A stretch of DNA of 38,920 bases, taken from assembly GCA_964534545.1 (NCBI GenBank), contig CAZHQS010000002.1, positions 1-38,920 on the forward strand. Reading direction: 5' to 3'. Position numbers and translations under genes: made by a program. This stretch comes from Candidatus Hydrothermarchaeota archaeon. Lineage in GTDB: Archaea; Hydrothermarchaeota; Hydrothermarchaeia; Hydrothermarchaeales; JAADFM01. The notes under the pieces were generated by a model, which was not told the origin of the DNA, did not search any database, and was given only the letters and a program-made list of their open reading frames with translations. Below are positions 5,712 through 36,626 of the stretch, in pieces. The stretch's first letter is position 1. Each line of letters starts with the position of its first letter.

Positions 5712-6815
5712 TCATTTTCTGGGCATCCGGAAGAGGACCCCAGCCCGCATATCTCTAATTGAGAAGGTGAAGTCATCGATGTGCTTCTCGGTGAAGGGTA
5801 TGCCGGTAAGCTCGAAGAACCTCTCCCAGCCTATGCGGCCTATCCACTCCCCAACCCTTTCGTCCTCCTCGGCATTCTCCGTCCATACCTCAATAATCTT
5901 CTTGACCGTTTTCGTGACCTCGGGCCACCTGGGCGGGTCGTTGGGGATGTAGGGGACCGCCAGCCTGGAGAAGGCAGGGCCGCTCCTGGCGCTGGAGACC
6001 TTCCCCCCCACCCAGATGGAGACCCCGTCATTTTCCGGATCCGCCAGGGGCACCCCCGGGCAGAGGCTGTAGCAGATGCCGCAGTACATGCATTTAGAGG
6101 CGTCTATCTGGATGGACCTCCTGGTCCCCCCGTCCTCCTGCGTGACCATCTTCGGCTTTATGGCATAGGTAGGACAGGAGGAGATGAGGGTCGGGATCTC
6201 ACAGGCCCTGGATACCACGTCGTCGTCCACCCTCGGGGGGACCCTGTGCATCCCCAGGACCGCAATGTCCGAGCAGTGGACCGCCCCGCACATGTTGAGG
6301 CATCCGGCCACGGCTATCTTGAGTTTTGCAGGGAGGTCCGTCCTGGAGAAGTAGGGGTACAGTTCGTCGTAGAGGGCCTTCCCGATACCCGGCGAGTCCG
6401 TGGCCGGGGTATGACAGTGGACCCAGGCCGTGCACTGGATGATGCTGGCCATGGACTTCCCGGTTCCCCCCACGGGGAGCCCCATCTCCTTCAGGTCCCT
6501 GATAAGGGGGTCTATGTTATCCTCCTCGGTCAGGAGGAACTCAATGGAGTGCCTGGAGGTGAACCTCAGGTAGCCGCCGCAGTATCTGTCCGCCAGGTCG
6601 CAAATCTTCCGGATGGTGGCAGGGCTTACGAACTTGGGACCCCCGGCCCTGACCGTATATACAGCCTCTCCGGATTCCGCCACATGCTTCAGGACCCCGG
6701 GCCCCATATGCTCGTAGTAGTCCCACTTCCCGTAGTTCCTCCTGACGACGGGCGGGAGCATCTGCTGGAAGTCAGGGGGTCCGAAGTCCAGTTTTTCCGG
6801 CATCTCCATGGTCAT
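5712..6815 (-). CDS. dsrB: Dissimilatory sulfite reductase beta subunit
   Basis: DFGPPDFQQMLPPVVRRNYGKW, LRFTSRHSIEF, CTAWVHCHTPATD (CX5C), GCLNMCGAVHCSD (CX3C), ferredoxin insert CMYCGICYSLCP, IGWERFF. RBS TAGGAGGAA overlaps the dsrA stop. Confidence 0.92.
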   Translation of the reverse strand: MTMEMPEKLDFGPPDFQQMLPPVVRRNYGKWDYYEHMGPGVLKHVAESGEAVYTVRAGGPKFVSPATIRKICDLADRYCGGYLRFTSRHSIEFLLTEEDNIDPLIRDLKEMGLPVGGTGKSMASIIQCTAWVHCHTPATDSPGIGKALYDELYPYFSRTDLPAKLKIAVAGCLNMCGAVHCSDIAVLGMHRVPPRVDDDVVSRACEIPTLISSCPTYAIKPKMVTQEDGGTRRSIQIDASKCMYCGICYSLCPGVPLADPENDGVSIWVGGKVSSARSGPAFSRLAVPYIPNDPPRWPEVTKTVKKIIEVWTENAEEDERVGEWIGRIGWERFFELTGIPFTEKHIDDFTFSIRDMRAGVLFRMPRK

Positions 6816-6821
6816 TTCCTC

Positions 6822-7964
6822 CTACTCGATCTCCTCTGGCCAGTAGAACCAGAAGGGGTTGGCCCTGGGGGCCGCCACCTGCTGGGGCACCGCAGGGAGC
6901 TCCACGGCCCTCAGGAACCTGGCCATGCCGAGGCGGTATATGGTCTCGCCAATCCTTTCCTTGGTGCGGCCGTTCTCGTCCCACCAGTCCGTTATGTTGT
7001 CGATGAGGGTCTTGAGGTTTTGGTAGGGGGGCTTCAGTTTTATGAAGGGTATCAGGGTCCAGCCAAGGAAGGCCCCGTATCTCCCCCGGGCCCGCCCCCC
7101 TATGAGGATCGTGGCGCCCTTCTCCTCTCCGGGTTTTAGTGCCCTTGGCATCTTGTTCAGGCAGTGCATGCACCGGACACAGTCCCCCTCCTTCAGCTCC
7201 AGCTCCGTCCCGTCCCATCGGATGGCACCGGTGGGGCATTTTGAGCAGATGCGGGAGATATCCAGGCCATCATCGGCATACCTTTTGACCTCCCCCTGTT
7301 TTATCCGCATAGGCCCCTTCCACGTCCCTATGATGGCAAGGTCAGACCTTGCCACCGCCCCGGTGGCGTCGTTGGGGCAGCCCGATATCTTTATCTTGAA
7401 CTTGTAGGGGAACCTGGGCCGGTGGGTCTCCCCGATGTATTCCCTCATGAGCTCCTGGTATATCCCCAGGGTGTCGATGCAGGCGAGGTTGCACCTGGCG
7501 GGCCCGATACAGCAGCTCATGGTCCTTATGGTGGCGCCGGAGCTGCCGATGTCGAAGTCCATCCTGGCGAACTCGTTGAAGCACTGGACCATGTCCTCCT
7601 TTTTTATCCCGATGAGCTGGATATTCCCCTGGGCGCCGTGGAAGTTCATCAGGCCCCTGCCGTACCTCTCCCAGATGTCACAGATCTCCCGGAGGTGCCT
7701 CGTGGTGTAGAACCAGGCCGCCGGGGAGGTGATCCTGAGGCTGTGGTTGTCCCTGATGATCTCCGGGGAGTCGCTCAGCCTCCCTATGACCCCTGAATCG
7801 TAGCCCGGGATACCCACCATGCCGCCGTGCTTCCAGTGGACCACCCTGTCCTGGTACATCTTCTCGTAGATGGCCACGAGCTCCTTGTAGCCCGTCCTCT
7901 TCATCTCGGTGACATGGCTGGGCCAGGGGCCCTTCTCAAGTTCGTCGATTAGACCTTCTCCCAC
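6822..7964 (-). CDS. dsrA: Dissimilatory sulfite reductase alpha subunit (short form, 380 aa)
   Basis: GTG start after GGGTGAG. LEKGPWPSHVTEMKR, HWKHGGMVG, CIGPARC (CX5C), PYKFKIKISGCPNDA, ferredoxin insert CSKCPTGA...CVRCMHCLNKMP, C-terminal PRANPFWFYW. Confidence 0.9.
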   Translation of the reverse strand: MGEGLIDELEKGPWPSHVTEMKRTGYKELVAIYEKMYQDRVVHWKHGGMVGIPGYDSGVIGRLSDSPEIIRDNHSLRITSPAAWFYTTRHLREICDIWERYGRGLMNFHGAQGNIQLIGIKKEDMVQCFNEFARMDFDIGSSGATIRTMSCCIGPARCNLACIDTLGIYQELMREYIGETHRPRFPYKFKIKISGCPNDATGAVARSDLAIIGTWKGPMRIKQGEVKRYADDGLDISRICSKCPTGAIRWDGTELELKEGDCVRCMHCLNKMPRALKPGEEKGATILIGGRARGRYGAFLGWTLIPFIKLKPPYQNLKTLIDNITDWWDENGRTKERIGETIYRLGMARFLRAVELPAVPQQVAAPRANPFWFYWPEEIE

Positions 7965-29209: not shown

Positions 29210-29440
29210 ATGAGTAAGGAAAACACCGGAACCCGGAAGGGAGGCCATGGCTTTGGCGATACCCTCAAGGAGGGCAGGAAGAGGCTCAAGATAAAGATGG
29301 CAGACCTGATTTATGTCCTGGACATCCAGAACAAGAACCCCCATGTGGACCGGGTCCTGGCAGACTACGGCCTGGACCGGGACACCCTGAAACGGGTCAA
29401 GGCGGCCCTGGAAAGGGGCAGGTGGAAGGTCCAGGTCTAA
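29210..29440 (+). CDS. Small basic protein (possible HTH), hypothetical
   Basis: 76-aa ORF with host-like codon usage. TGTATATAAT and the ATCGG/CCGAT palindrome lie upstream. Its stop overlaps the hemY stop on the opposite strand. Confidence 0.35.
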   Translation: MSKENTGTRKGGHGFGDTLKEGRKRLKIKMADLIYVLDIQNKNPHVDRVLADYGLDRDTLKRVKAALERGRWKVQV

Positions 29441-30867
29441 CCGCCCTTTTTCAGGTATCTAACTACCTTTTCCCCGGTCTCGGCCGCCACCCTTGAGCAG
29501 TCGTTGATTCCTATGCCGGTGTAGGAGTTGCCTGCCAGGAAGAGGCCGGGATGCTCCTTCAATCTCGCCTCCAGCCTTTCCAGCTTTTCAGAGTGCCCCA
29601 CATTGTACTGGGGGATGGCCTTGCCGTGGCGGGCAATCTTTACCATCTCGGGCTCGGCCTGGACCCCCATGATCTCCCGCAGGTCCTTCTTGACCGCCTC
29701 TATCATGTCCTGGTCCAGGAGGTCGGCGGTCTCGGGACGCCTGGCCCCCCCCACCATACACCTCAGGAGGACCTTGCCTTCGGGGGCCCTGTGGTCGTAC
29801 ATGCTGGAGTCCCAGAGGCATCCCAGGATGGTCCTGCCCTCCTCGTGGGGGACCAGGAAGCCGAAGCCCTCCAGGTCATGGCCGATTTCCTCCTTGGAAT
29901 AGCCCAGGGCCACCACCGCCAGGGGGGGATAGGGGATCTCCTCCAGGATACCTTTGATCTCCTCGTCCAGGCCCGAGAGGACCTCGGCGCAGGCGTAGGC
30001 CGGGGCGGCCATGACCACCACATCAGCCCCCAGGCTCCCGGTGCTGCCCTCTTGGTCCTGGTAATGGACGGTATATCTCCCCTCGGGGCTCATTCCGACC
30101 CGCGTCACCCTCCTGCCGGTGACGATGGCATCGCCGAGTTTCTCCTCCAGGATATCTATGATGAACTGCATTCCCTCCGGGAAGGAGGTCAGGGTGCCTC
30201 CGGGCCCCATGGGACCCCCCTTGGCCCCCGCCTTGCCCTCCTTTCTCATCTGTTTCGCCTTCTTCATCCTCCGGATCATGGCCTTTATGAGGCTGCCGCC
30301 GCCCTCCTGCTCGAGCTGGGCCATGATGGGGAAGGCGCTTTTGAGGCTGAGCCTGTAGGGGTCCCCGGCGAAGACCCCGGAGACCATGGGCCCCACCAGG
30401 TTGCGCAGGGCCTCCCTTCCGATGTGCCTCTCCACGAAGGAGGCCACGGTCTCGTCCCCGGCCTCTGGTGGTTTCGTGAAGGGCTCCCTGAGGACCCTCA
30501 GCCTCCCCTTGAGGGAGAGGACCCCGGATTTGAAAAAGCCCAGGGGGGAACTGGCCAAGAGATGGAGCTTTCCATAGGCATAGATGTACCTCTTCCTGGC
30601 CCTGTCATTGGAGGGCATGAGGCGGTCCCTTATCCCCAGGGCGTCGCAGAGCTCCAGGGTCCAGGGCTTGTTGTCCAGAAAGCCGTTGACCCCCCATTCT
30701 ATGCTGTAACCTTCCGTCTTCTCGGTCCATACCTTGCCCCCCAGCCTCCTGGAACCCTCGAGGACGGTTAGGTCTATATCCAGACCCTCCTTCTCTGCCC
30801 CCTCCATGATCCTGAAGGCCGTGGCCAGGCCTGAGAACCCACCACCCACGACTACGATTTCGGTCAT
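29437..30867 (-). CDS. hemY: Protoporphyrinogen/coproporphyrinogen III oxidase (HemY/CgoX type)
   Basis: FAD-binding fold IVVVGGGFSGLATAF, about 476 aa, C-terminal GNSYTGIGINDC. Adjacent to hemH and hemE. Confidence 0.85.
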   Translation of the reverse strand: MTEIVVVGGGFSGLATAFRIMEGAEKEGLDIDLTVLEGSRRLGGKVWTEKTEGYSIEWGVNGFLDNKPWTLELCDALGIRDRLMPSNDRARKRYIYAYGKLHLLASSPLGFFKSGVLSLKGRLRVLREPFTKPPEAGDETVASFVERHIGREALRNLVGPMVSGVFAGDPYRLSLKSAFPIMAQLEQEGGGSLIKAMIRRMKKAKQMRKEGKAGAKGGPMGPGGTLTSFPEGMQFIIDILEEKLGDAIVTGRRVTRVGMSPEGRYTVHYQDQEGSTGSLGADVVVMAAPAYACAEVLSGLDEEIKGILEEIPYPPLAVVALGYSKEEIGHDLEGFGFLVPHEEGRTILGCLWDSSMYDHRAPEGKVLLRCMVGGARRPETADLLDQDMIEAVKKDLREIMGVQAEPEMVKIARHGKAIPQYNVGHSEKLERLEARLKEHPGLFLAGNSYTGIGINDCSRVAAETGEKVVRYLKKGG

Positions 30868-30877
30868 GTAGTAACCT

Positions 30878-31822
30878 CTACTTCTGAATATTTAAAACCA
30901 TCCCGGCCAGGGCATCGATGAACTTCTCGGAAGTATTCAAAGACTCGGTGCGCCTGAAGTTGTCTATTCCCAGGGATTCAGCATATTCCCGGTACTGGAT
31001 ATCGATCTCGTAGAGGGTCTCGATGTGGTCCGAGACAAAGCTGATGGGTACCACCAGGACATCCCTGTGGCCCTTCTCTGCCAGGTTCTTTAATGTCTCC
31101 CCGAGACCGGGACCCACCCACTTGACCGGTCCCGTCCTGCTCTGGTATGCCAGGTGCCACCCCATCTCCCCCACCCTCTTCCAGACCCCATCTATGGTCC
31201 CCCTTATGTGGTCGATGTAGGGGTCCCCCTCATCCAGGAACCTCTGGGGAATGGAATGGGCGCTGAATACCACCTGGACCCGGTCTGGATTGCCAAAGGC
31301 CGAAAGTCCGTCCCTCACCTTCTCTGCCAGGGCGTCCAGGTAGCCAGGGTCATCGTAGAAGCTCTCGATCCTCCTTTCTTTAAAAGCCAGACCCAGGGTC
31401 TCCTTCACCCTCTCCAGCTCTGCGAGACATGAACCTGTGGTAGCCCTGGTATATTGAGGATAGAGGGGGAGTATCACAAGCTCCTTTATCCCGTCCTCCT
31501 TGACCTCCCACAGGGCCTCCTCCAGGGTGGGGTGCCAGTAGCGCATACCCACGTAGCACTTGCAGCCCTCCAGGCGCTCCTCCAGGGCCAGGGCCTGCTT
31601 CAGGGTGATGTCCAGGATAGGGCTCCTGCCGCCGATGCGGGCGTAGCGCCGGCGGACCTTCCGTGACCGGACCAGGGACAGAAACCTGGCAAAACCTTTC
31701 TGGAAGGGGAGGTGTATGATGTCCCTGTCCGAGAAGAGGTTGTACAGGAAGGGCTGGACCGCCTCCAGGGAATCCGGTCCACCGAGATTTAGAAGGAGCA
31801 CTCCTTTTTCTACCATAATCAC
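30878..31822 (-). CDS. hemH: Ferrochelatase (HemH/CpfC)
   Basis: LLLNLGGPDS...VQPFLYNLFSD, YPQY, FSAHSIP, SFVSDHIETLYEID. Confidence 0.88.
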   Translation of the reverse strand: MIMVEKGVLLLNLGGPDSLEAVQPFLYNLFSDRDIIHLPFQKGFARFLSLVRSRKVRRRYARIGGRSPILDITLKQALALEERLEGCKCYVGMRYWHPTLEEALWEVKEDGIKELVILPLYPQYTRATTGSCLAELERVKETLGLAFKERRIESFYDDPGYLDALAEKVRDGLSAFGNPDRVQVVFSAHSIPQRFLDEGDPYIDHIRGTIDGVWKRVGEMGWHLAYQSRTGPVKWVGPGLGETLKNLAEKGHRDVLVVPISFVSDHIETLYEIDIQYREYAESLGIDNFRRTESLNTSEKFIDALAGMVLNIQK

Positions 31823-31863
31823 CCTCCATCATAAATCCTTGCCAGGGATATAAGTATTTTCGC

Positions 31864-32895
31864 CTATCTGTGACTGAACCTCTTCACCGCCTCCACCATG
31901 GCGATGACGTTCTCCACCGGGGTGTGCTTGTTGATGCCGTGCCCCAGGTTGAAGATGTGGCCCGGCCTGCCCCCGGCCCGGTGCAGGACGTCCTTGACCC
32001 TTTCTGCGATGTAGTCCCGGGGCGCCATCAACACCATGGGGTCCAGGTTGCCCTGGATGCCCACATCATGGCCGATGCGCCCCCATGCCTCGTCTAGGGG
32101 GATGCGCCAGTCCACCCCTATCACGTCGCCCCCGGCCTCCCTCACCGACTCCAGGAAGGTGGCGGCCTGGTTGGCGAAGTGGATGACGGGAACCTCACCC
32201 TTGATCCGGTCGATGATCTTCCTGGTGTAGGGCATGGCGAACTCCCGGTAATCTGAGGGGGTCAGGCACCCTGCCCAGGAGTCGAAGAGCTGTACCGCCT
32301 GGGCCCCGGCCTCTATCTGGGCCTTCAGGTAGAGGGCCACCGTATCCGTGAGCTTCTCCATCAGAACCTCCCAGGTTTTGGGCTCCGAGAACATCATGGT
32401 CTTGGTGTGGAGGTAGTCCCTGGTGCCGCCCCCGTCCACCATATAGGAGGCCAGGGTGAAGGGCGCCCCCGAGAACCCTATCAGGGGGACACGACCCGCG
32501 AGCCTTTCCCGGAGGATCTTAACGGCCTCCAGGACATAGGACAGGGCCTCGAAGGGGTCCGGAACCTTCAGGGCCTCGGCATCTTCCCTTGTCCTCACCG
32601 GGTTGTGGATTACCGGACCCCTGCCCGGGACAAACTCCAGGTCCGCACCCATCCCTTCGAAGGGCACCAGGATGTCTGAAAAGAGGATGGCGGCATCAAC
32701 CCCAAGGCGGTCGATGGGCTGGAGGGTGACCTCTGCCGCCACCTGGGGCTTCCGGCACATCTCCAGGAAGGAGTACTTTCTTCGTACCTCCTGGTACTCC
32801 TCCATGTACCTGCCCGCCTGGCGCATGAGCCAGACTGGAGTGCGCTCCGTCTCCTCCCGGCGGCATGCTCTAAGGAAAAGGTGATCGTCTCCCAT
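31864..32895 (-). CDS. hemE: Uroporphyrinogen decarboxylase
   Basis: RTPVWLMRQAGRYMEEY, ILFSDILV, FDSWAG, NLGHGI. I chose start MGDDHLFLRAC at 32895; the longer track ORF adds a non-homologous extension. Confidence 0.88.
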   Translation of the reverse strand: MGDDHLFLRACRREETERTPVWLMRQAGRYMEEYQEVRRKYSFLEMCRKPQVAAEVTLQPIDRLGVDAAILFSDILVPFEGMGADLEFVPGRGPVIHNPVRTREDAEALKVPDPFEALSYVLEAVKILRERLAGRVPLIGFSGAPFTLASYMVDGGGTRDYLHTKTMMFSEPKTWEVLMEKLTDTVALYLKAQIEAGAQAVQLFDSWAGCLTPSDYREFAMPYTRKIIDRIKGEVPVIHFANQAATFLESVREAGGDVIGVDWRIPLDEAWGRIGHDVGIQGNLDPMVLMAPRDYIAERVKDVLHRAGGRPGHIFNLGHGINKHTPVENVIAMVEAVKRFSHR

Positions 32896-32933
32896 CAACC
32901 AAGGTGTAGGGAGAGGGGCCCATATAACCTTTT

Positions 32934-33215
32934 CTAATGGACACCCCTGACTTGCCTGGAATAGCAGTCCCTGCAATAAACCGGCCTGTCCTGATGAGGC
33001 ACGAAGGGAACCTGGGTGGCCTCCCCACACTCGGCGCAGATGGCATCATGCATCTCTCGGGAGACCCTTCCGCTGCGAGCGGCCTTCTTCCTATCCCTAC
33101 AGGCCCTGCATCTTTTGGGGTCCTGGAAGCCCTTATCCCTGTAGAAATCCTGTTCCTCGCCAGAGAAAAGGAACTCCTCCCCGCAGTCCAGGCAGATTAT
33201 GGTCCTATCTTCCAT
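32934..33215 (-). CDS. Double zinc-ribbon protein (CxxC..CxxC, twice)
   Basis: ICLDCGEEF...RCRACRDRK and ICAECGEAT...YCRDCY. Confidence 0.75.
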   Translation of the reverse strand: MEDRTIICLDCGEEFLFSGEEQDFYRDKGFQDPKRCRACRDRKKAARSGRVSREMHDAICAECGEATQVPFVPHQDRPVYCRDCYSRQVRGVH

Positions 33216-33261
33216 CTGGATTTTGCTCCTTTATGATAGACTGGGCGGGTCGAGTATTTAG

Positions 33262-34593
33262 CTATTTCGTCATGGCGAGGCTTCTAAAGGACCTCCTTTC
33301 CACCCCCTCCAGGATCTTGACGATACCGGGGGCATCCTCCTGCTCGGGCCCGGCCCGGGGGATTGATATGCCGTGATATTCGGCCAGGGCATCGAAGAGG
33401 GCTTCACGCAGCCCGTCCGGGGTGAAGCCGCCGGTCTCGAGCACCGGGTTCAGGTGGTGGTACTCCCACCAGCGGCGGTGGAGGATTCGGATCCCCAGGT
33501 CCTCGGCATGGTTGTAGATGCCTGTGCCGGGATAGGGGGTCAGGATGGAAAAGGTGGCCTCGCCTCCCATGTCCCTAATCTCCTTTGCCAGGCCAATCGT
33601 CTTTGCAAAATCCTCCCGGGTCTCCCCCGGAAACCCTACCATGAAGCCGCAGACAGGAGTTATCCCGCTTTCTGAAAGGTCCCGGACGGTTTCCAGGACG
33701 CCCTGGACCTCTATCCCCTTCCTGATGGTATCCACCATCCTCTGGCACCCGCTCTCGATGCCGAACCTCACCACCCTGCACCCAGAGGCCGCCATCTCCT
33801 CGATGAGCTCCCGGTCCATGTGGTCCAGCCTGAGTTCAGCAGACCATCCCACCCCCAGGGACTTCAATCCCCTGCATATCTCAAGGGTCCTCCTCCGGTC
33901 CGAGGCGAAGTTGGGGTCCACGAAGAAGAAGGAATCAATTCCCTGGCCCACCAGGGACTCAACCTCAGCCAGGACACCCTCCGCCCTCCTGAGCCTGAGC
34001 ATCCCGGAGACCAGCCTGGAGGAGCAGATGGAGCAGGTGTTGGCGCACCCCCTGGAGGTGGCGACGGCACCGGGGAATGAGTATCTGTGCAGCTCCAGCA
34101 GGTGTCTGGCGGGCAGGGGCAGGGAATCCAGATCCTTAACCCTCTGCATCCTGTTCTTACCCAACTTCCCACCCCGCCGGTAGACCAACCCCGGGACCTC
34201 CTCCAGGTTCCCTCTGCCCTCAAGGGCAGCCGCCAGGACGGTAATGGCAGGCTCCCCCTCTCCCCGGATGACATAATCGAAACCGTCCTCCAGGGCCTCC
34301 TCGGCCAGGGCGGTGACGTGGGGACCGCCCACCACCACCGGGGTCCCTGAAGCCTTGGCCGCCTTCATGATCCGCACCGCCAGGTGGTAGTTGTGGGTAT
34401 AGCAGGAGATGCCCACCAGGTCTGCCCCCTCCAAGTCCTCCTCCAGTCTCCTATGGAGATTCATGTCCACGACTTTTACCTCGTGGCCCTCCCTTTCCAG
34501 GACCCCGGCCAGATAGGCCAGGCCCAGAGGCGGGACCTCCACCTGGGGCTCTGAGACCTCCCTGTGGGGAGCCTCCACCAGGAGGACCCTCAT
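33262..34593 (-). CDS. B12-binding-domain radical SAM protein (class B)
   Basis: N-terminal Rossmann/B12-like half (MRVLLVEAP...GISCYT...VVVGGPHVT). Radical SAM cluster motif GCANTCSIC (CX3CX2C). 4-nt overlap with the PqqD-like gene. Confidence 0.85.
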   Translation of the reverse strand: MRVLLVEAPHREVSEPQVEVPPLGLAYLAGVLEREGHEVKVVDMNLHRRLEEDLEGADLVGISCYTHNYHLAVRIMKAAKASGTPVVVGGPHVTALAEEALEDGFDYVIRGEGEPAITVLAAALEGRGNLEEVPGLVYRRGGKLGKNRMQRVKDLDSLPLPARHLLELHRYSFPGAVATSRGCANTCSICSSRLVSGMLRLRRAEGVLAEVESLVGQGIDSFFFVDPNFASDRRRTLEICRGLKSLGVGWSAELRLDHMDRELIEEMAASGCRVVRFGIESGCQRMVDTIRKGIEVQGVLETVRDLSESGITPVCGFMVGFPGETREDFAKTIGLAKEIRDMGGEATFSILTPYPGTGIYNHAEDLGIRILHRRWWEYHHLNPVLETGGFTPDGLREALFDALAEYHGISIPRAGPEQEDAPGIVKILEGVERRSFRSLAMTK

Positions 34594-34808
34594 ACCTCCA
34601 CCTCCTCTAGGAGGTCCAGGTGCTTCAGCCTCCGGATAAAGGCGAGTACCTGGGGGTCTTCCGGCGGAATGTAATCCCCCTCCAGAGCCTCCCAGATCTC
34701 TGCCCCTTTTTCATTCAGGGAATAGATACCCCCTTTGGCCATGATAAGGACCCTGGTCCCCTCCCGCTTCCAGACCACGTTAGCTCTCCTCAGACCCACT
34801 TGGACCAC
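34590..34808 (-). CDS. PqqD-family protein (RiPP recognition element-like chaperone)
   Basis: 72 aa. VVWKREGTRVLIMAKGGIYSLNEKGAEIWEAL fits the PqqD pattern. Confidence 0.7.
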   Translation of the reverse strand: MVQVGLRRANVVWKREGTRVLIMAKGGIYSLNEKGAEIWEALEGDYIPPEDPQVLAFIRRLKHLDLLEEVEV

Positions 34809-34812
34809 ACCA

Positions 34813-35520
34813 TCACGACTCCAGAAGCCTTTTGAGTTCTGCCTTGAGTTGTGTCACCTTCTCCCTCCTGGCCTCCCCGTCCTGGCATACCACACCCCTG
34901 AAGCCCAGGATGTCAGGGTCAACCCTTAGCGCCTCTTCCAGGTGGGGGATGCGGATGGAGCCTGCCAGGATGAGTTCCATCCCCTGGTCATGGGCCCTTT
35001 CCTTGAGTTCTGAGAGCCTCTCCATGGGGGCGAAGTCCAGGACGTTCTTGCCGTCCTTTATGGCGGTGTCCACCATGAGGATATCCGCCCCTTCCATCTG
35101 GTCGACGAAGTCGAAGGGGTCGGCGGCACCGATGCGCCCGGCATCGGCGTAGCCTGAGATTATAAGTCCACACCCTGGATCGTATTCGTCGATGGCCCTT
35201 CTCAAATGCCCTGCCATGACCCCCACCTCCCGGGGTGTTCTGACAGCGAACATGGAGGCCGTCACGTAGTCAACCTCCAGGGTGGCAGTGCCGAAGGCGG
35301 CAAGGGATGCCGTCCCGGGCCTGAAATCCAGGTCGCCTATGGAGGCTGCTATCTCGACCCCTTTGGGAGCCAGGGCCATGACCTCCTCTATCACCCCAGG
35401 GGTGTTGGCCCCCAAGGTCCCCTCAGCCGGGTTCTTCACGTCCAGGATGTCCACCCCCCCGGCGGCCATCACCTCCCCTGCCTCTCTGAGGTCCTTGATG
35501 CTTATCATGACTCGAACCAT
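34813..35520 (-). CDS. mfnB: MfnB-like (5-formylfuran-3-yl)methyl phosphate synthase family protein (DUF556)
   Basis: GGVDILDVKNPAEGTLGAN, SIGD, ISGYADA, MVDTAIKDGKNVLDF, LAGSI. About 235 aa. Confidence 0.65.
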   Translation of the reverse strand: MVRVMISIKDLREAGEVMAAGGVDILDVKNPAEGTLGANTPGVIEEVMALAPKGVEIAASIGDLDFRPGTASLAAFGTATLEVDYVTASMFAVRTPREVGVMAGHLRRAIDEYDPGCGLIISGYADAGRIGAADPFDFVDQMEGADILMVDTAIKDGKNVLDFAPMERLSELKERAHDQGMELILAGSIRIPHLEEALRVDPDILGFRGVVCQDGEARREKVTQLKAELKRLLES

Positions 35521-35567: not shown

Positions 35568-36626
35568 ATGCTGGCAGAGATCAAGATGGAACTCCAGGCC
35601 AAGGGTTTGAGGGTCCCTCCCCGCCTGGAGGCAGAGCTTTCCCTTGAATACATCGTTCAGCCCCAGTACATCTCCTTCATGATGGGAGAGGTTCCGGTGG
35701 GGATCATGAACGGTCCCTATTCCGAAGGCTCGCCCTTCGAGGTGGGGCTGGTGGAGGGGGAGACCTGGATACTGAAGGACGGGAAGCCCTATGTGGAAAT
35801 CCGGTTCCTGAGATGGCCAGATTTTTTTGACAAGGAAACCTCCAGGGGGACCCCCATGTCAGGGATATGCTCCCTGGTAGCCCCGGGATTCACCATCTGC
35901 TATGTCCATCGAGGGTGCGTCTACTGGAGGGAGACCTACCAGTGCAGGTTCTGCATCGTGGAGCGGCTGTCATCAAAGATGGTGAAGGATCCCCGGGATA
36001 TTGCAGAGACCATGAGGGCCGGGGTGGAGGAGGGGGCCATCAAGACCCATGTGGCCCTGACCTCGGGGGCCCAGCCCGGCAGGGACAGGGGAAACCGGGT
36101 TGTGGGGGAGGCCGCCGATGCCATAAAGGAGATGGTATCAATCCCCATCTCAGCCAACACCGAGCCCCCCAAGGACATCTCATGTTTGAAGGCCCTGGAG
36201 AACTGCGATTCCGCCTACTTCAACCTGGAGGTCTTTGACAGGCGGGCCCGGCAGGAGTGGACACCGGGAAAGGGGAAGATACCCCTTGATGTCTATCAGG
36301 AGACCTTCAAGCACTCCCTGGACATCCTGGGGGAGAACCAGGTGGGGTCGGTCCTCCTGGCCGGCCTGGAAGATGACCGGGGCCTCCTGGAAGGCGTCCG
36401 CTGGCTGGCTGAGCAGGGGGTCATCCCGGTGGTGGAGCCGGTCTATCCCCTCCAGGGCTCCCTGATACCTCACATGAAGCCCCCATCGGCGGCGAGGATG
36501 AAGGCCCTCTATGAGGCGACAATAGAGATCGTTGACGAGCACGGCCTAAGACCTGACAAGACAAAGGCAGGATTTGTAAGGGGGGGCGCCCTCTCGGCCA
36601 TGAAGGAGGTCAGGCTGGGGTTATAG
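35568..36626 (+). CDS. Fe-S / radical-SAM-like protein with non-canonical CX8CX2C spacing
   Basis: HRGCVYWRETYQCRFC. Later VALTSG and alternating beta/alpha-like sequence. Divergent from the mfnB-like operon across a 47-nt spacer. Confidence 0.45.
   Translation: MLAEIKMELQAKGLRVPPRLEAELSLEYIVQPQYISFMMGEVPVGIMNGPYSEGSPFEVGLVEGETWILKDGKPYVEIRFLRWPDFFDKETSRGTPMSGICSLVAPGFTICYVHRGCVYWRETYQCRFCIVERLSSKMVKDPRDIAETMRAGVEEGAIKTHVALTSGAQPGRDRGNRVVGEAADAIKEMVSIPISANTEPPKDISCLKALENCDSAYFNLEVFDRRARQEWTPGKGKIPLDVYQETFKHSLDILGENQVGSVLLAGLEDDRGLLEGVRWLAEQGVIPVVEPVYPLQGSLIPHMKPPSAARMKALYEATIEIVDEHGLRPDKTKAGFVRGGALSAMKEVRLGL

Follow-up and report, generated by a model that had tools for sequence, protein, structure and literature searches.

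Why should an archaeon keep an aldolase-like protein, a PqqD-like protein and a radical S-adenosylmethionine (SAM) enzyme in one row of genes with three enzymes of haem formation? The question is raised by a stretch of DNA of 38,920 nucleotides (hereafter the window), which is the complete contig C2 (38.9 kb) of a 1.93-Mb metagenome-assembled genome (MAG; 98% complete). On its minus strand, between positions 29437 and 35520, seven open reading frames (ORFs) follow one another: a paralogue of the methanofuran enzyme MfnB, a short PqqD-like protein and a radical SAM enzyme with a B12-binding domain (together called the trio here), then a zinc-ribbon protein, and lastly hemE, hemH and hemY. A first-pass annotation of this DNA had proposed that the trio is functionally joined to the haem genes. 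Here, we argue for a different reading, to which we give a probability of roughly two in three: the row is a species-specific juxtaposition of three independently conserved units, of which the trio is one arm of a peptide-maturation system.

The host belongs to the archaeal order Hydrothermarchaeales, and orthologues of its proteins carry the label 'Candidatus Hydrothermarchaeales archaeon' in the protein sources. That the host is archaeal changes the reading of both halves of the row, the trio and the hem genes. The order was sampled with 35 species-level genomes, including Candidatus Pyrohabitans JdFR-16 and JdFR-17 among the closest; phyletic counts and p values given below refer to this sample, with kinship ignored.

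The gene row and its assembly

The ORF listing and direct reading of the sequence agree with the coordinates and spacing that had been given for the row. Counted from the MfnB paralogue towards hemY, a 4-nt gap is followed by a 4-nt overlap and then by gaps of 46, 38, 41 and 10 nt, of which the 38-nt gap presupposes the ATG at 32895 as the start of hemE. Family scans likewise bore out the identifications of the individual genes. An independent contig from a separately assembled JGI metagenome (L075) has identical gene order and is 99.93% identical over 8296 nt, with 6 mismatches. Because this contig shows the matching order, the junctions are real, and misassembly at the boundary between trio and hem genes was ruled out.

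The trio is conserved apart from the haem genes

Seventeen distinct loci carrying an orthologue of the B12-binding radical SAM enzyme (B12-rSAM) were examined. Haem genes stand beside the trio at the window locus and its twin L075 only, and at none of the 16 other loci. Within the order, B12-rSAM orthologues occur in 7 of the 35 genomes. Other neighbours recur. Five loci (L001/L002, L024, L025 and L077) continue from the trio into a gene for an FmdE-domain protein and a gene for a methyltransferase-domain protein of 330 aa; in four 'type B' loci (L026, L027, L051 and L061) the module is preceded by genes for an NMT1-type binding protein and a permease; an ABC-2 exporter follows the trio in L074; and six loci (L050, L060, L076, L078, L080 and L083) lie back to back with the peptide cluster described below. 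The host has FmdE-like and 330-aa methyltransferase partners of its own on contigs C81 and C67; no NCBIfam family matched the FmdE-like protein.

Seen from the haem genes, the picture is the same. The trio is missing from 10 of the 15 genomes with HemY, and the association between trio and HemY is not significant (p = 0.11). The nearest relative of the window's HemY (84% identity) sits in a different neighbourhood, adjoined by neither hemH nor the trio. Measured by the refuting conditions named in the first-pass annotation, a joint function is refuted on two counts: by synteny, as the linkage is confined to the window locus and its twin, and by copies elsewhere in the genome, an AhbD-type gene on contig C143 and a better-scoring mfnB on contig C29, which account for those roles.

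The gene between the trio and hemE encodes a stand-alone treble-clef zinc-ribbon protein of 93 aa (32934-33215, minus strand; zf_Tbcl, zf_Tbcl_2 and TIGR04272) and lies beside the trio or hem genes in no relative examined. A paralogue with 58% identity (zf_Tbcl) is encoded on contig C13 (4520-4789), and the window copy can thus be regarded as a generic stand-alone gene, an insert without relation to its neighbours.

Another B12-rSAM gene was considered as a link to haem. It lies convergent to hemY in a Ca. Pyrohabitans-like genus, g18 (L038:7978-9042, L048:6144-7340 and L049:9187-10251), and was rejected: it is a different paralogue, 31-35% identical to the window enzyme and found in this one genus, and its position is probably coincidental.

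A conserved peptide cluster adjoins the trio at six loci

The cluster that stands back to back with the trio opens with an ORF of 30-39 codons, and the motif WKLxIEDFE[KR][AT]ACYRDHGDYxP is kept in the ten copies that were read out. The peptide is followed, in this order, by a PqqD protein, two radical SAM/SPASM enzymes, a variant radical SAM enzyme with a CX8CX2C motif, a methyltransferase, an AstE-like protein, a tetratricopeptide repeat (TPR) protein and a second CX8CX2C radical SAM enzyme. In the host, the cluster occupies C85:1447-6940, with the peptide at 1459-1554; this candidate precursor of 31 aa, MDEKEWKLTIEDFEKTACYRDHGDYTPIPPE, is the sole copy of the peptide in the genome, and no NCBIfam model matched it. 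The cluster is also conserved in five genomes of the sample (G017, G023, G026, G031 and G032) and on several metagenome contigs.

A PqqD-like protein paired with a radical SAM enzyme had been taken as a sign of peptide maturation. This is supported by the fold of the PqqD-like protein, that of a recognition element (RRE) for ribosomally synthesised and post-translationally modified peptides (RiPPs), and by the conserved peptide cluster adjoining the trio. The accompanying remark that no precursor lies in or around the row holds for the window, in which no precursor-like short ORF was found, but not for the genome: the peptide is encoded on C85, and in six relatives back to back with the trio.

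The window itself holds a piece of this cluster. On C85 the usual last gene is missing, and its orthologue lies in the window at 35568-36626 on the plus strand, divergent from the trio and separated from it by a 47-nt spacer. It encodes a variant radical SAM enzyme (varrSAM2; CX8CX2C, MSMEG_0568-like), which contains the motif GCVYWRETYQCRFC and scores 159 bits with NF045502 (variant_rSAM) against a cut-off of 125. VarrSAM2 is 48-52% identical to the last gene product of the peptide cluster in L068-L072 and L060, as against 34-37% to the other paralogue, and in L026, L051 and L061, too, its gene stands next to the module in divergent orientation. It belongs to the trio's system and not to the hem genes.

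The distribution of the two arms points the same way. Five genomes have both the trio and the peptide cluster, two the trio only, one the cluster only, and 27 neither (p = 3.7e-4), and presence and absence match even within two genera. In L076, all components are united in one two-armed locus. This locus has further genes (L076:11365-16465): the trio's arm includes a DUF362/ferredoxin gene between B12-rSAM and FmdE, and the methyltransferase gene is followed by a gene for an HGD-D (2-hydroxyacyl-CoA dehydratase-like) protein and by another radical SAM gene. As far as has been seen, the peptide-maturation system is almost exclusive to Hydrothermarchaeales, and it is undescribed.

The RRE protein and the B12-radical SAM enzyme

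The PqqD-like protein of the row (RRE2; 34590-34808, minus strand) has 72 aa and is a borderline member of Pfam PqqD, with 23.8 bits against a cut-off of 23.4. Its AlphaFold2 model (pLDDT 89.8) combines a beta-sheet with helices. Top matches of the model in Foldseek are TbiB1 with its leader peptide (TMq 0.75, probability 1.00), TruD, LynD, PbtF and PqqD; the E-values are weak (6.9e-3 at best), as is to be expected of so short a chain. The modelled structure is that of a winged-helix RRE. Its sequence is 29% identical to that of the PqqD protein of the C85 cluster.

The enzyme encoded immediately downstream (33262-34593, minus strand) has a B12-binding domain (PF02310, 90.8 bits) and a radical SAM domain (PF04055, 76.7 bits), with the CX3CX2C motif present as GCANTCSIC. 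Domains and motif identify it as a class B (cobalamin-dependent) radical SAM enzyme. It falls into no characterised equivalog family, as all 31 NCBIfam matches are far under their cut-offs; the best are ApyD (156 bits, cut-off 750), HpnJ (148) and AprD4 (143), and BchE reaches 120. Classification with family models, as had been suggested, does not favour BchE, which does no better than a dozen other families. The best match in the PDB is AprD4. Methylation is only a default guess for the reaction of this enzyme, because this closest structure is that of a dehydratase.

Orthologues with 45-62% identity are from Hydrothermarchaeales in two taxon-labelled cases, and one is labelled Thermodesulfobacteriota. 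Bacterial homologues are about 528 aa long and 36% identical, and their genes have unrelated neighbours, among them those for catalase, Fur and glycosyltransferases. These longer homologues (P0046 and others) are labelled Desulfobacterota and exceed the window enzyme by about 85 residues. At least one of them has a fused PqqD domain, from which it follows that the pairing of RRE and B12-rSAM is older than the archaeal system.

The MfnB paralogue

The first gene of the row (34813-35520, minus strand) encodes a class I aldolase TIM barrel of the family of 4-(hydroxymethyl)-2-furancarboxaldehyde phosphate (4-HFC-P) synthase (PF04476, 4HFCP_synth, 194.7 bits). With the two MfnB models it scores 200.1 and 199.7 bits, under both cut-offs (NF002573, 341; NF002575, 304). 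A second copy in the host, on contig C29, reaches 289 and 276-280 bits, about 90 higher and likewise under the cut-offs, and lies beside HisA/F-related (TIGR00734) and PurP genes. On these scores the C29 copy is the housekeeping mfnB, and the window protein is a separate paralogue. Association with genes of methanofuran or tetrahydromethanopterin (H4MPT) was not found for the window copy, its neighbours being the RRE and B12-rSAM genes. The MfnB paralogue occurs in 7 of the 35 genomes, always adjoined by B12-rSAM.

Two lysines and two aspartates have been reported to be essential in MfnB (PMC6604932). The window protein aligns over its full length with the MfnB of locus MJ1099 (E = 1.8e-48), and 32 paralogues were aligned with nine true MfnBs. 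Asp25, Lys27, Asp151 and Lys155 are invariant throughout. Position 85 (MJ1099 numbering) is lysine in all nine true MfnBs and threonine or valine in all 32 paralogues, threonine in the window protein; at position 8, a lysine has been gained in every paralogue (32/32). This pattern of residues suggests that the paralogue probably keeps Schiff-base chemistry, though not necessarily the synthesis of 4-HFC-P. The presence of an MfnB-like enzyme at the head of the row, which had been noted as unexplained, is correct as a family match; the gene is that of a paralogue without Lys85, in a genome with its housekeeping mfnB on C29.

A literature search found no paper that brings MfnB together with radical SAM enzymes, and the published metabolic account of Hydrothermarchaeota is silent on methanofuran and on haem biosynthesis; a study of the thermostability of MfnB does not touch on catalytic residues. 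The gene for the MfnB paralogue is commonly preceded by one for a protein of 141-171 aa (L050:5282-5707, L060:7706-8134, L076:8692-9147 and L001:8553-9068), which matches no Pfam or NCBIfam model. A YLTY[FY]E[LV] motif is conserved in this protein, and four N-terminal CxxC zinc-ribbon motifs occur in part of its copies; the host homologue lies outside the window, on C223.

The haem genes form a separate unit

The last three genes, all on the minus strand, encode enzymes of the coproporphyrin branch, in agreement with the first-pass annotation, the specific CgoX and CpfC roles being probable. All pass their family cut-offs: hemE, for uroporphyrinogen decarboxylase (31864-32895, start ATG), with 453 bits for TIGR01464 against 303; hemH, for ferrochelatase (30878-31822, start GTG), with 327 bits for TIGR00109 against 125; and the gene of a HemY-type flavin adenine dinucleotide (FAD) oxidase (29437-30867) with 345 bits for TIGR00562 against 98. 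HemY orthologues of 47-61% identity occur in 15 of the 35 genomes, always adjoined by hemH or hemE-hemH, and the adjacency of hemH and hemY is kept in at least eight relatives.

Sites resembling promoters precede two of these genes. Upstream of the 1803 long ORFs (at least 200 aa) of the genome, TATA-like hexamers show a sharp peak at -32 to -28, which is typical of leaderless archaeal mRNAs and suggests that this archaeon normally transcribes its genes without a leader. The peak may help to place start codons and the limits of operons in other parts of the genome. A TTATAT box at 32922-32927 (minus strand), preceded by AAAAGG, begins at -32 from the ATG of hemE, as for a leaderless hemE transcript, and another at 31848-31853 (minus strand), with CGAAAATAC before it, begins at -31 from the GTG of hemH. 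Both lie at the position of the genome-wide peak and would fit internal promoters, with which read-through from upstream is compatible. From these boxes we infer separate transcription of the hem genes and the trio.

How would the branch be completed? Coproheme decarboxylase (ChdC, PF06778) had been recorded as missing from the locus; it was found neither there nor anywhere else in the host genome, nor in 37 other Hydrothermarchaeia genomes searched, and control genomes score. HemN (TIGR00538, E <= 1e-20) and HemF (PF01218) were likewise found in neither the host nor the relatives of its class, in scans that took in 41 genomes and in which control genomes score. The set of enzymes for the coproporphyrin-dependent (CPD) pathway is thereby complete up to coproheme, with HemE, HemY-type and HemH proteins above their cut-offs and HemN and HemF absent. 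The siroheme decarboxylase AhbA/B (PF17805) is missing from the host and from all 15 genomes with HemY. It occurs in 16 genomes of the order, none with HemY, so that 15 genomes have HemY only, 16 AhbA/B only and none both (Fisher p = 1.9e-6).

The earlier suggestion to look for chdC or ahbD elsewhere thus drew a blank for chdC and turned up an AhbD-type gene, at the edge of contig C143, apart from hemE. The best NCBIfam family for its product is haem b synthase (TIGR04545, 442.6 bits), with the next family 124 bits lower at 318.6. Scores with TIGR04545 fall into two classes across the genomes, 495-542 bits in those without HemY and 430-463 bits in those with it. In G005, G027 and G029, an ahbD of the lower-scoring class stands directly upstream of hemE and is 71-73% identical to the C143 gene, and the window hemE is 61-64% identical to the hemE of these ahbD-hemE-hemH-hemY clusters. 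A candidate for AhbC, on C54, was rejected as a TIGR04053-family protein. Contig C4 (31764-32327) has a second copy of the C-terminal half of the AhbD-like gene, truncated at the N-terminus and differing little from the one on C143; a leftover of the assembly, a strain variant and a pseudogene are all conceivable.

The simplest reading is a coproporphyrin branch completed by AhbD, because the genome lacks ChdC, HemN, HemF and AhbA/B and has an ahbD orthologue, and because HemY and AhbA/B exclude each other in the order. HemE would form coproporphyrinogen III, the HemY-type enzyme would oxidise it as a CgoX-like coproporphyrinogen III oxidase (CgoX and PgoX specificities not being separable by sequence), and HemH would insert iron as a coproporphyrin ferrochelatase, giving coproheme. 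The AhbD-type radical SAM haem synthase of C143 would then turn coproheme into haem b by an oxygen-independent decarboxylation. Accordingly, part of the order would have exchanged the siroheme route (AhbA/B) for bacterial-type HemE, HemY and HemH and kept AhbD.

The co-occurrence of HemY with dsrAB had been called odd. The dsrAB-like pair (NIR_SIR and NIR_SIR_ferr; 5712-6815 and 6822-7964, minus strand) lies about 22 kb from the hem genes. The closest non-archaeal relatives of HemY are about 50% identical, and those with taxon labels are from Geobacteraceae, Desulfuromonadales, Nitrospirae and Pseudomonadota MAGs; as such organisms carry close relatives, a HemY-type gene in an anaerobe is not unusual. 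The host presumably still makes siroheme in spite of lacking AhbA/B, because the dsrAB-like enzymes need it, and HemE and the siroheme branch would compete for uroporphyrinogen III.

Weighing the alternatives

Several observations weigh against three separate units with the trio as a peptide-maturation arm. The phyletic tests rest on 35 genomes of MAG grade and ignore kinship. Two genomes with the trio, G005 and G018, lack the peptide cluster, and the core module can hence work without the peptide. Type B loci carry the MfnB paralogue, B12-rSAM, FmdE and methyltransferase genes, with an Amidohydro_2 gene (L051 and L061), a weak PqqD-like ORF (L026) or an intervening gene of no assigned family (L027) in the slot of the RRE gene, and three loci adjoining the peptide cluster lack an RRE gene. 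We take Lys85 to be the second essential lysine of MfnB, with Asp25, Lys27 and Asp151, in MJ1099, and the argument from its loss depends on this. On the haem side, the AhbD-like protein of C143 is under the equivalog cut-off of TIGR04545 (442 against 500 bits), and a HemY-type oxidase would have to be reoxidised without O2. Finally, the seven genes share one strand, the gaps are short, there are no oligo-T terminators, and the order is repeated on a second contig, so that read-through co-transcription of the row is possible.

The main rival takes the trio for a small-molecule pathway, for example one in which FmdE and the methyltransferase help to make a cofactor that is a modified furan or resembles methanofuran, with the peptide cluster merely co-travelling on an accessory island. 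It can draw on the type B loci, which pair the MfnB paralogue and B12-rSAM with the NMT1-type protein, the permease, FmdE and the methyltransferase, on the loci without an RRE gene or with Amidohydro_2 in its place, and on the two genomes without the cluster; moreover, the MfnB family makes the furan of methanofuran, and the FmdE family takes its name from the operon of formylmethanofuran dehydrogenase. We nevertheless consider it improbable. The 72-aa protein is modelled with an RRE fold; at six loci trio and peptide gene stand back to back, and L076 unites all components; a CX8CX2C radical SAM gene is common to both arms; and trio and cluster co-vary within genera.

Much less of the evidence suits a single functional operon in which B12-rSAM, RRE and the MfnB-like protein carry out an oxygen-independent tetrapyrrole step, as a substitute for ChdC or in anaerobic support of HemY, or mature haem proteins. 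The features of the row just listed (gaps of at most 46 nt, one strand, no obvious terminators, the same order in L075) are what such an operon would show, ChdC is absent, HemY occurs in five of the seven genomes with the trio, and BchE, with its 120 bits, is a B12-rSAM enzyme of tetrapyrroles. Set against this are hem adjacency at one of 17 trio loci, the 10 of 15 HemY genomes without a trio, the promoter-like boxes before hemE and hemH, and a BchE score no better than those of a dozen unrelated B12-rSAM families, all far under their cut-offs. An AhbD orthologue is present and in three relatives linked to hemE, and in the closest relatives it is an ABC exporter gene or the peptide cluster that flanks the trio. 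Taken together, these points make a single operon of this kind highly unlikely.

That the MfnB-like gene is the host's ordinary methanofuran gene and the rest unrelated housekeeping is hardly credible in spite of the strong Pfam match (4HFCP_synth), one orthologue labelled (5-formylfuran-3-yl)methyl phosphate synthase at NCBI and the conserved Asp25, Lys27 and Asp151, since the C29 copy has far higher MfnB scores and lies in a context of archaeal cofactor genes, Lys85 is lost in 32 of 32 paralogues, and the paralogue occurs in only 7 of 35 genomes, always beside B12-rSAM.

A model for the peptide-maturation system and its significance

If the trio is a peptide-maturation arm, the MfnB paralogue, the RRE protein and B12-rSAM would act together with the product of the divergent CX8CX2C gene. 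The precursor would be the 31-aa peptide, with ACYRDHGDY as its core, and the remaining maturases would be those encoded on C85. The RRE protein would present the peptide, or an intermediate, to B12-rSAM for C-methylation or a related radical step, and the MfnB paralogue, with its swapped lysine, would make or condense a carbonyl unit derived from triose phosphate for the same product. What the sequences show is gene content, synteny, phyletic patterns, the RRE fold and the exchange of lysines; the chemistry is a proposal.

A more speculative extension, which we regard as doubtful, is that the five radical SAM enzymes process the ACYRDHGDY core into a new archaeal peptide-derived product, onto which the MfnB paralogue grafts a triose-derived, possibly furan-type, unit. 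The graft could be made, for instance, onto the phenol of the tyrosine, in a methanofuran-like manner, and the product might be analogous to pyrroloquinoline quinone (PQQ) or mycofactocin.

The separation of the units removes a tempting false lead, namely an 'anaerobic haem step' catalysed by a B12-radical SAM enzyme. The trio gains a candidate substrate in its place, a conserved peptide of about 30 residues with radical SAM maturases of its own. An MfnB-family aldolase in peptide maturation would, if true, be new chemistry. For haem, one archaeal order shows an either/or switch between the siroheme route (AhbA/B) and HemE, HemY and HemH, both ending in AhbD. This switch is a natural experiment on the exchange of haem pathways between domains and on HemY-type oxidases in strict anaerobes.

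Comparison with known systems

The coproporphyrin pathway completed by AhbD is known in anaerobic Gram-positive bacteria (PMC13564367). The host resembles them in having HemE, a HemY-type oxidase, HemH and an AhbD-type protein and in lacking ChdC, HemN, HemF and AhbA/B. It differs in being archaeal, with relatives that make haem by way of siroheme (Ahb), and the mosaic is reversed, with the native AhbD kept and bacterial-type hemE, hemH and hemY acquired; furthermore, ahbD is separated from hemE in the host. The archaeon is a new host for a known mosaic.

With the MfnB of MJ1099 (PDB 4RC1 and 4U9P), the window paralogue shares the TIM-barrel family, the Schiff-base lysine Lys27, and Asp25, Asp151 and Lys155. 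Unlike MJ1099, the paralogues have threonine or valine for Lys85, a new invariant lysine on strand 1 and a deletion of a loop near the C-terminus. The gene lies beside that of a B12-radical SAM enzyme rather than beside mfn or H4MPT genes, and the host keeps a true mfnB elsewhere.

The class B radical SAM enzymes of RiPP pathways (ApyD, and methylases of the CysS/TokK type) have the same N-terminal B12 domain and CX3CX2C core as the window enzyme, for which ApyD is the top NCBIfam match. The gene of its RRE partner directly precedes that of the window enzyme and overlaps it by 4 nt. In contrast, the score of 156 bits is far from the ApyD cut-off of 750, and the nearest structure is that of the dehydratase AprD4.

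Finally, the nearest parallels to the system as a whole are PqqD and PqqE of the PQQ pathway and MftB and MftC of the mycofactocin pathway. These systems and the archaeal one have in common a short conserved precursor with a tyrosine in its core, an RRE of the PqqD family and tailoring enzymes encoded alongside. SPASM radical SAM enzymes are also present here, with MftC-like and PqqE-like matches of 108-181 bits, although no family cut-off is reached. Different from both are the five radical SAM genes of three kinds, the two RRE genes, the MfnB-type aldolase and the FmdE-domain protein, in a system that is archaeal and, in this host, spread over several contigs.

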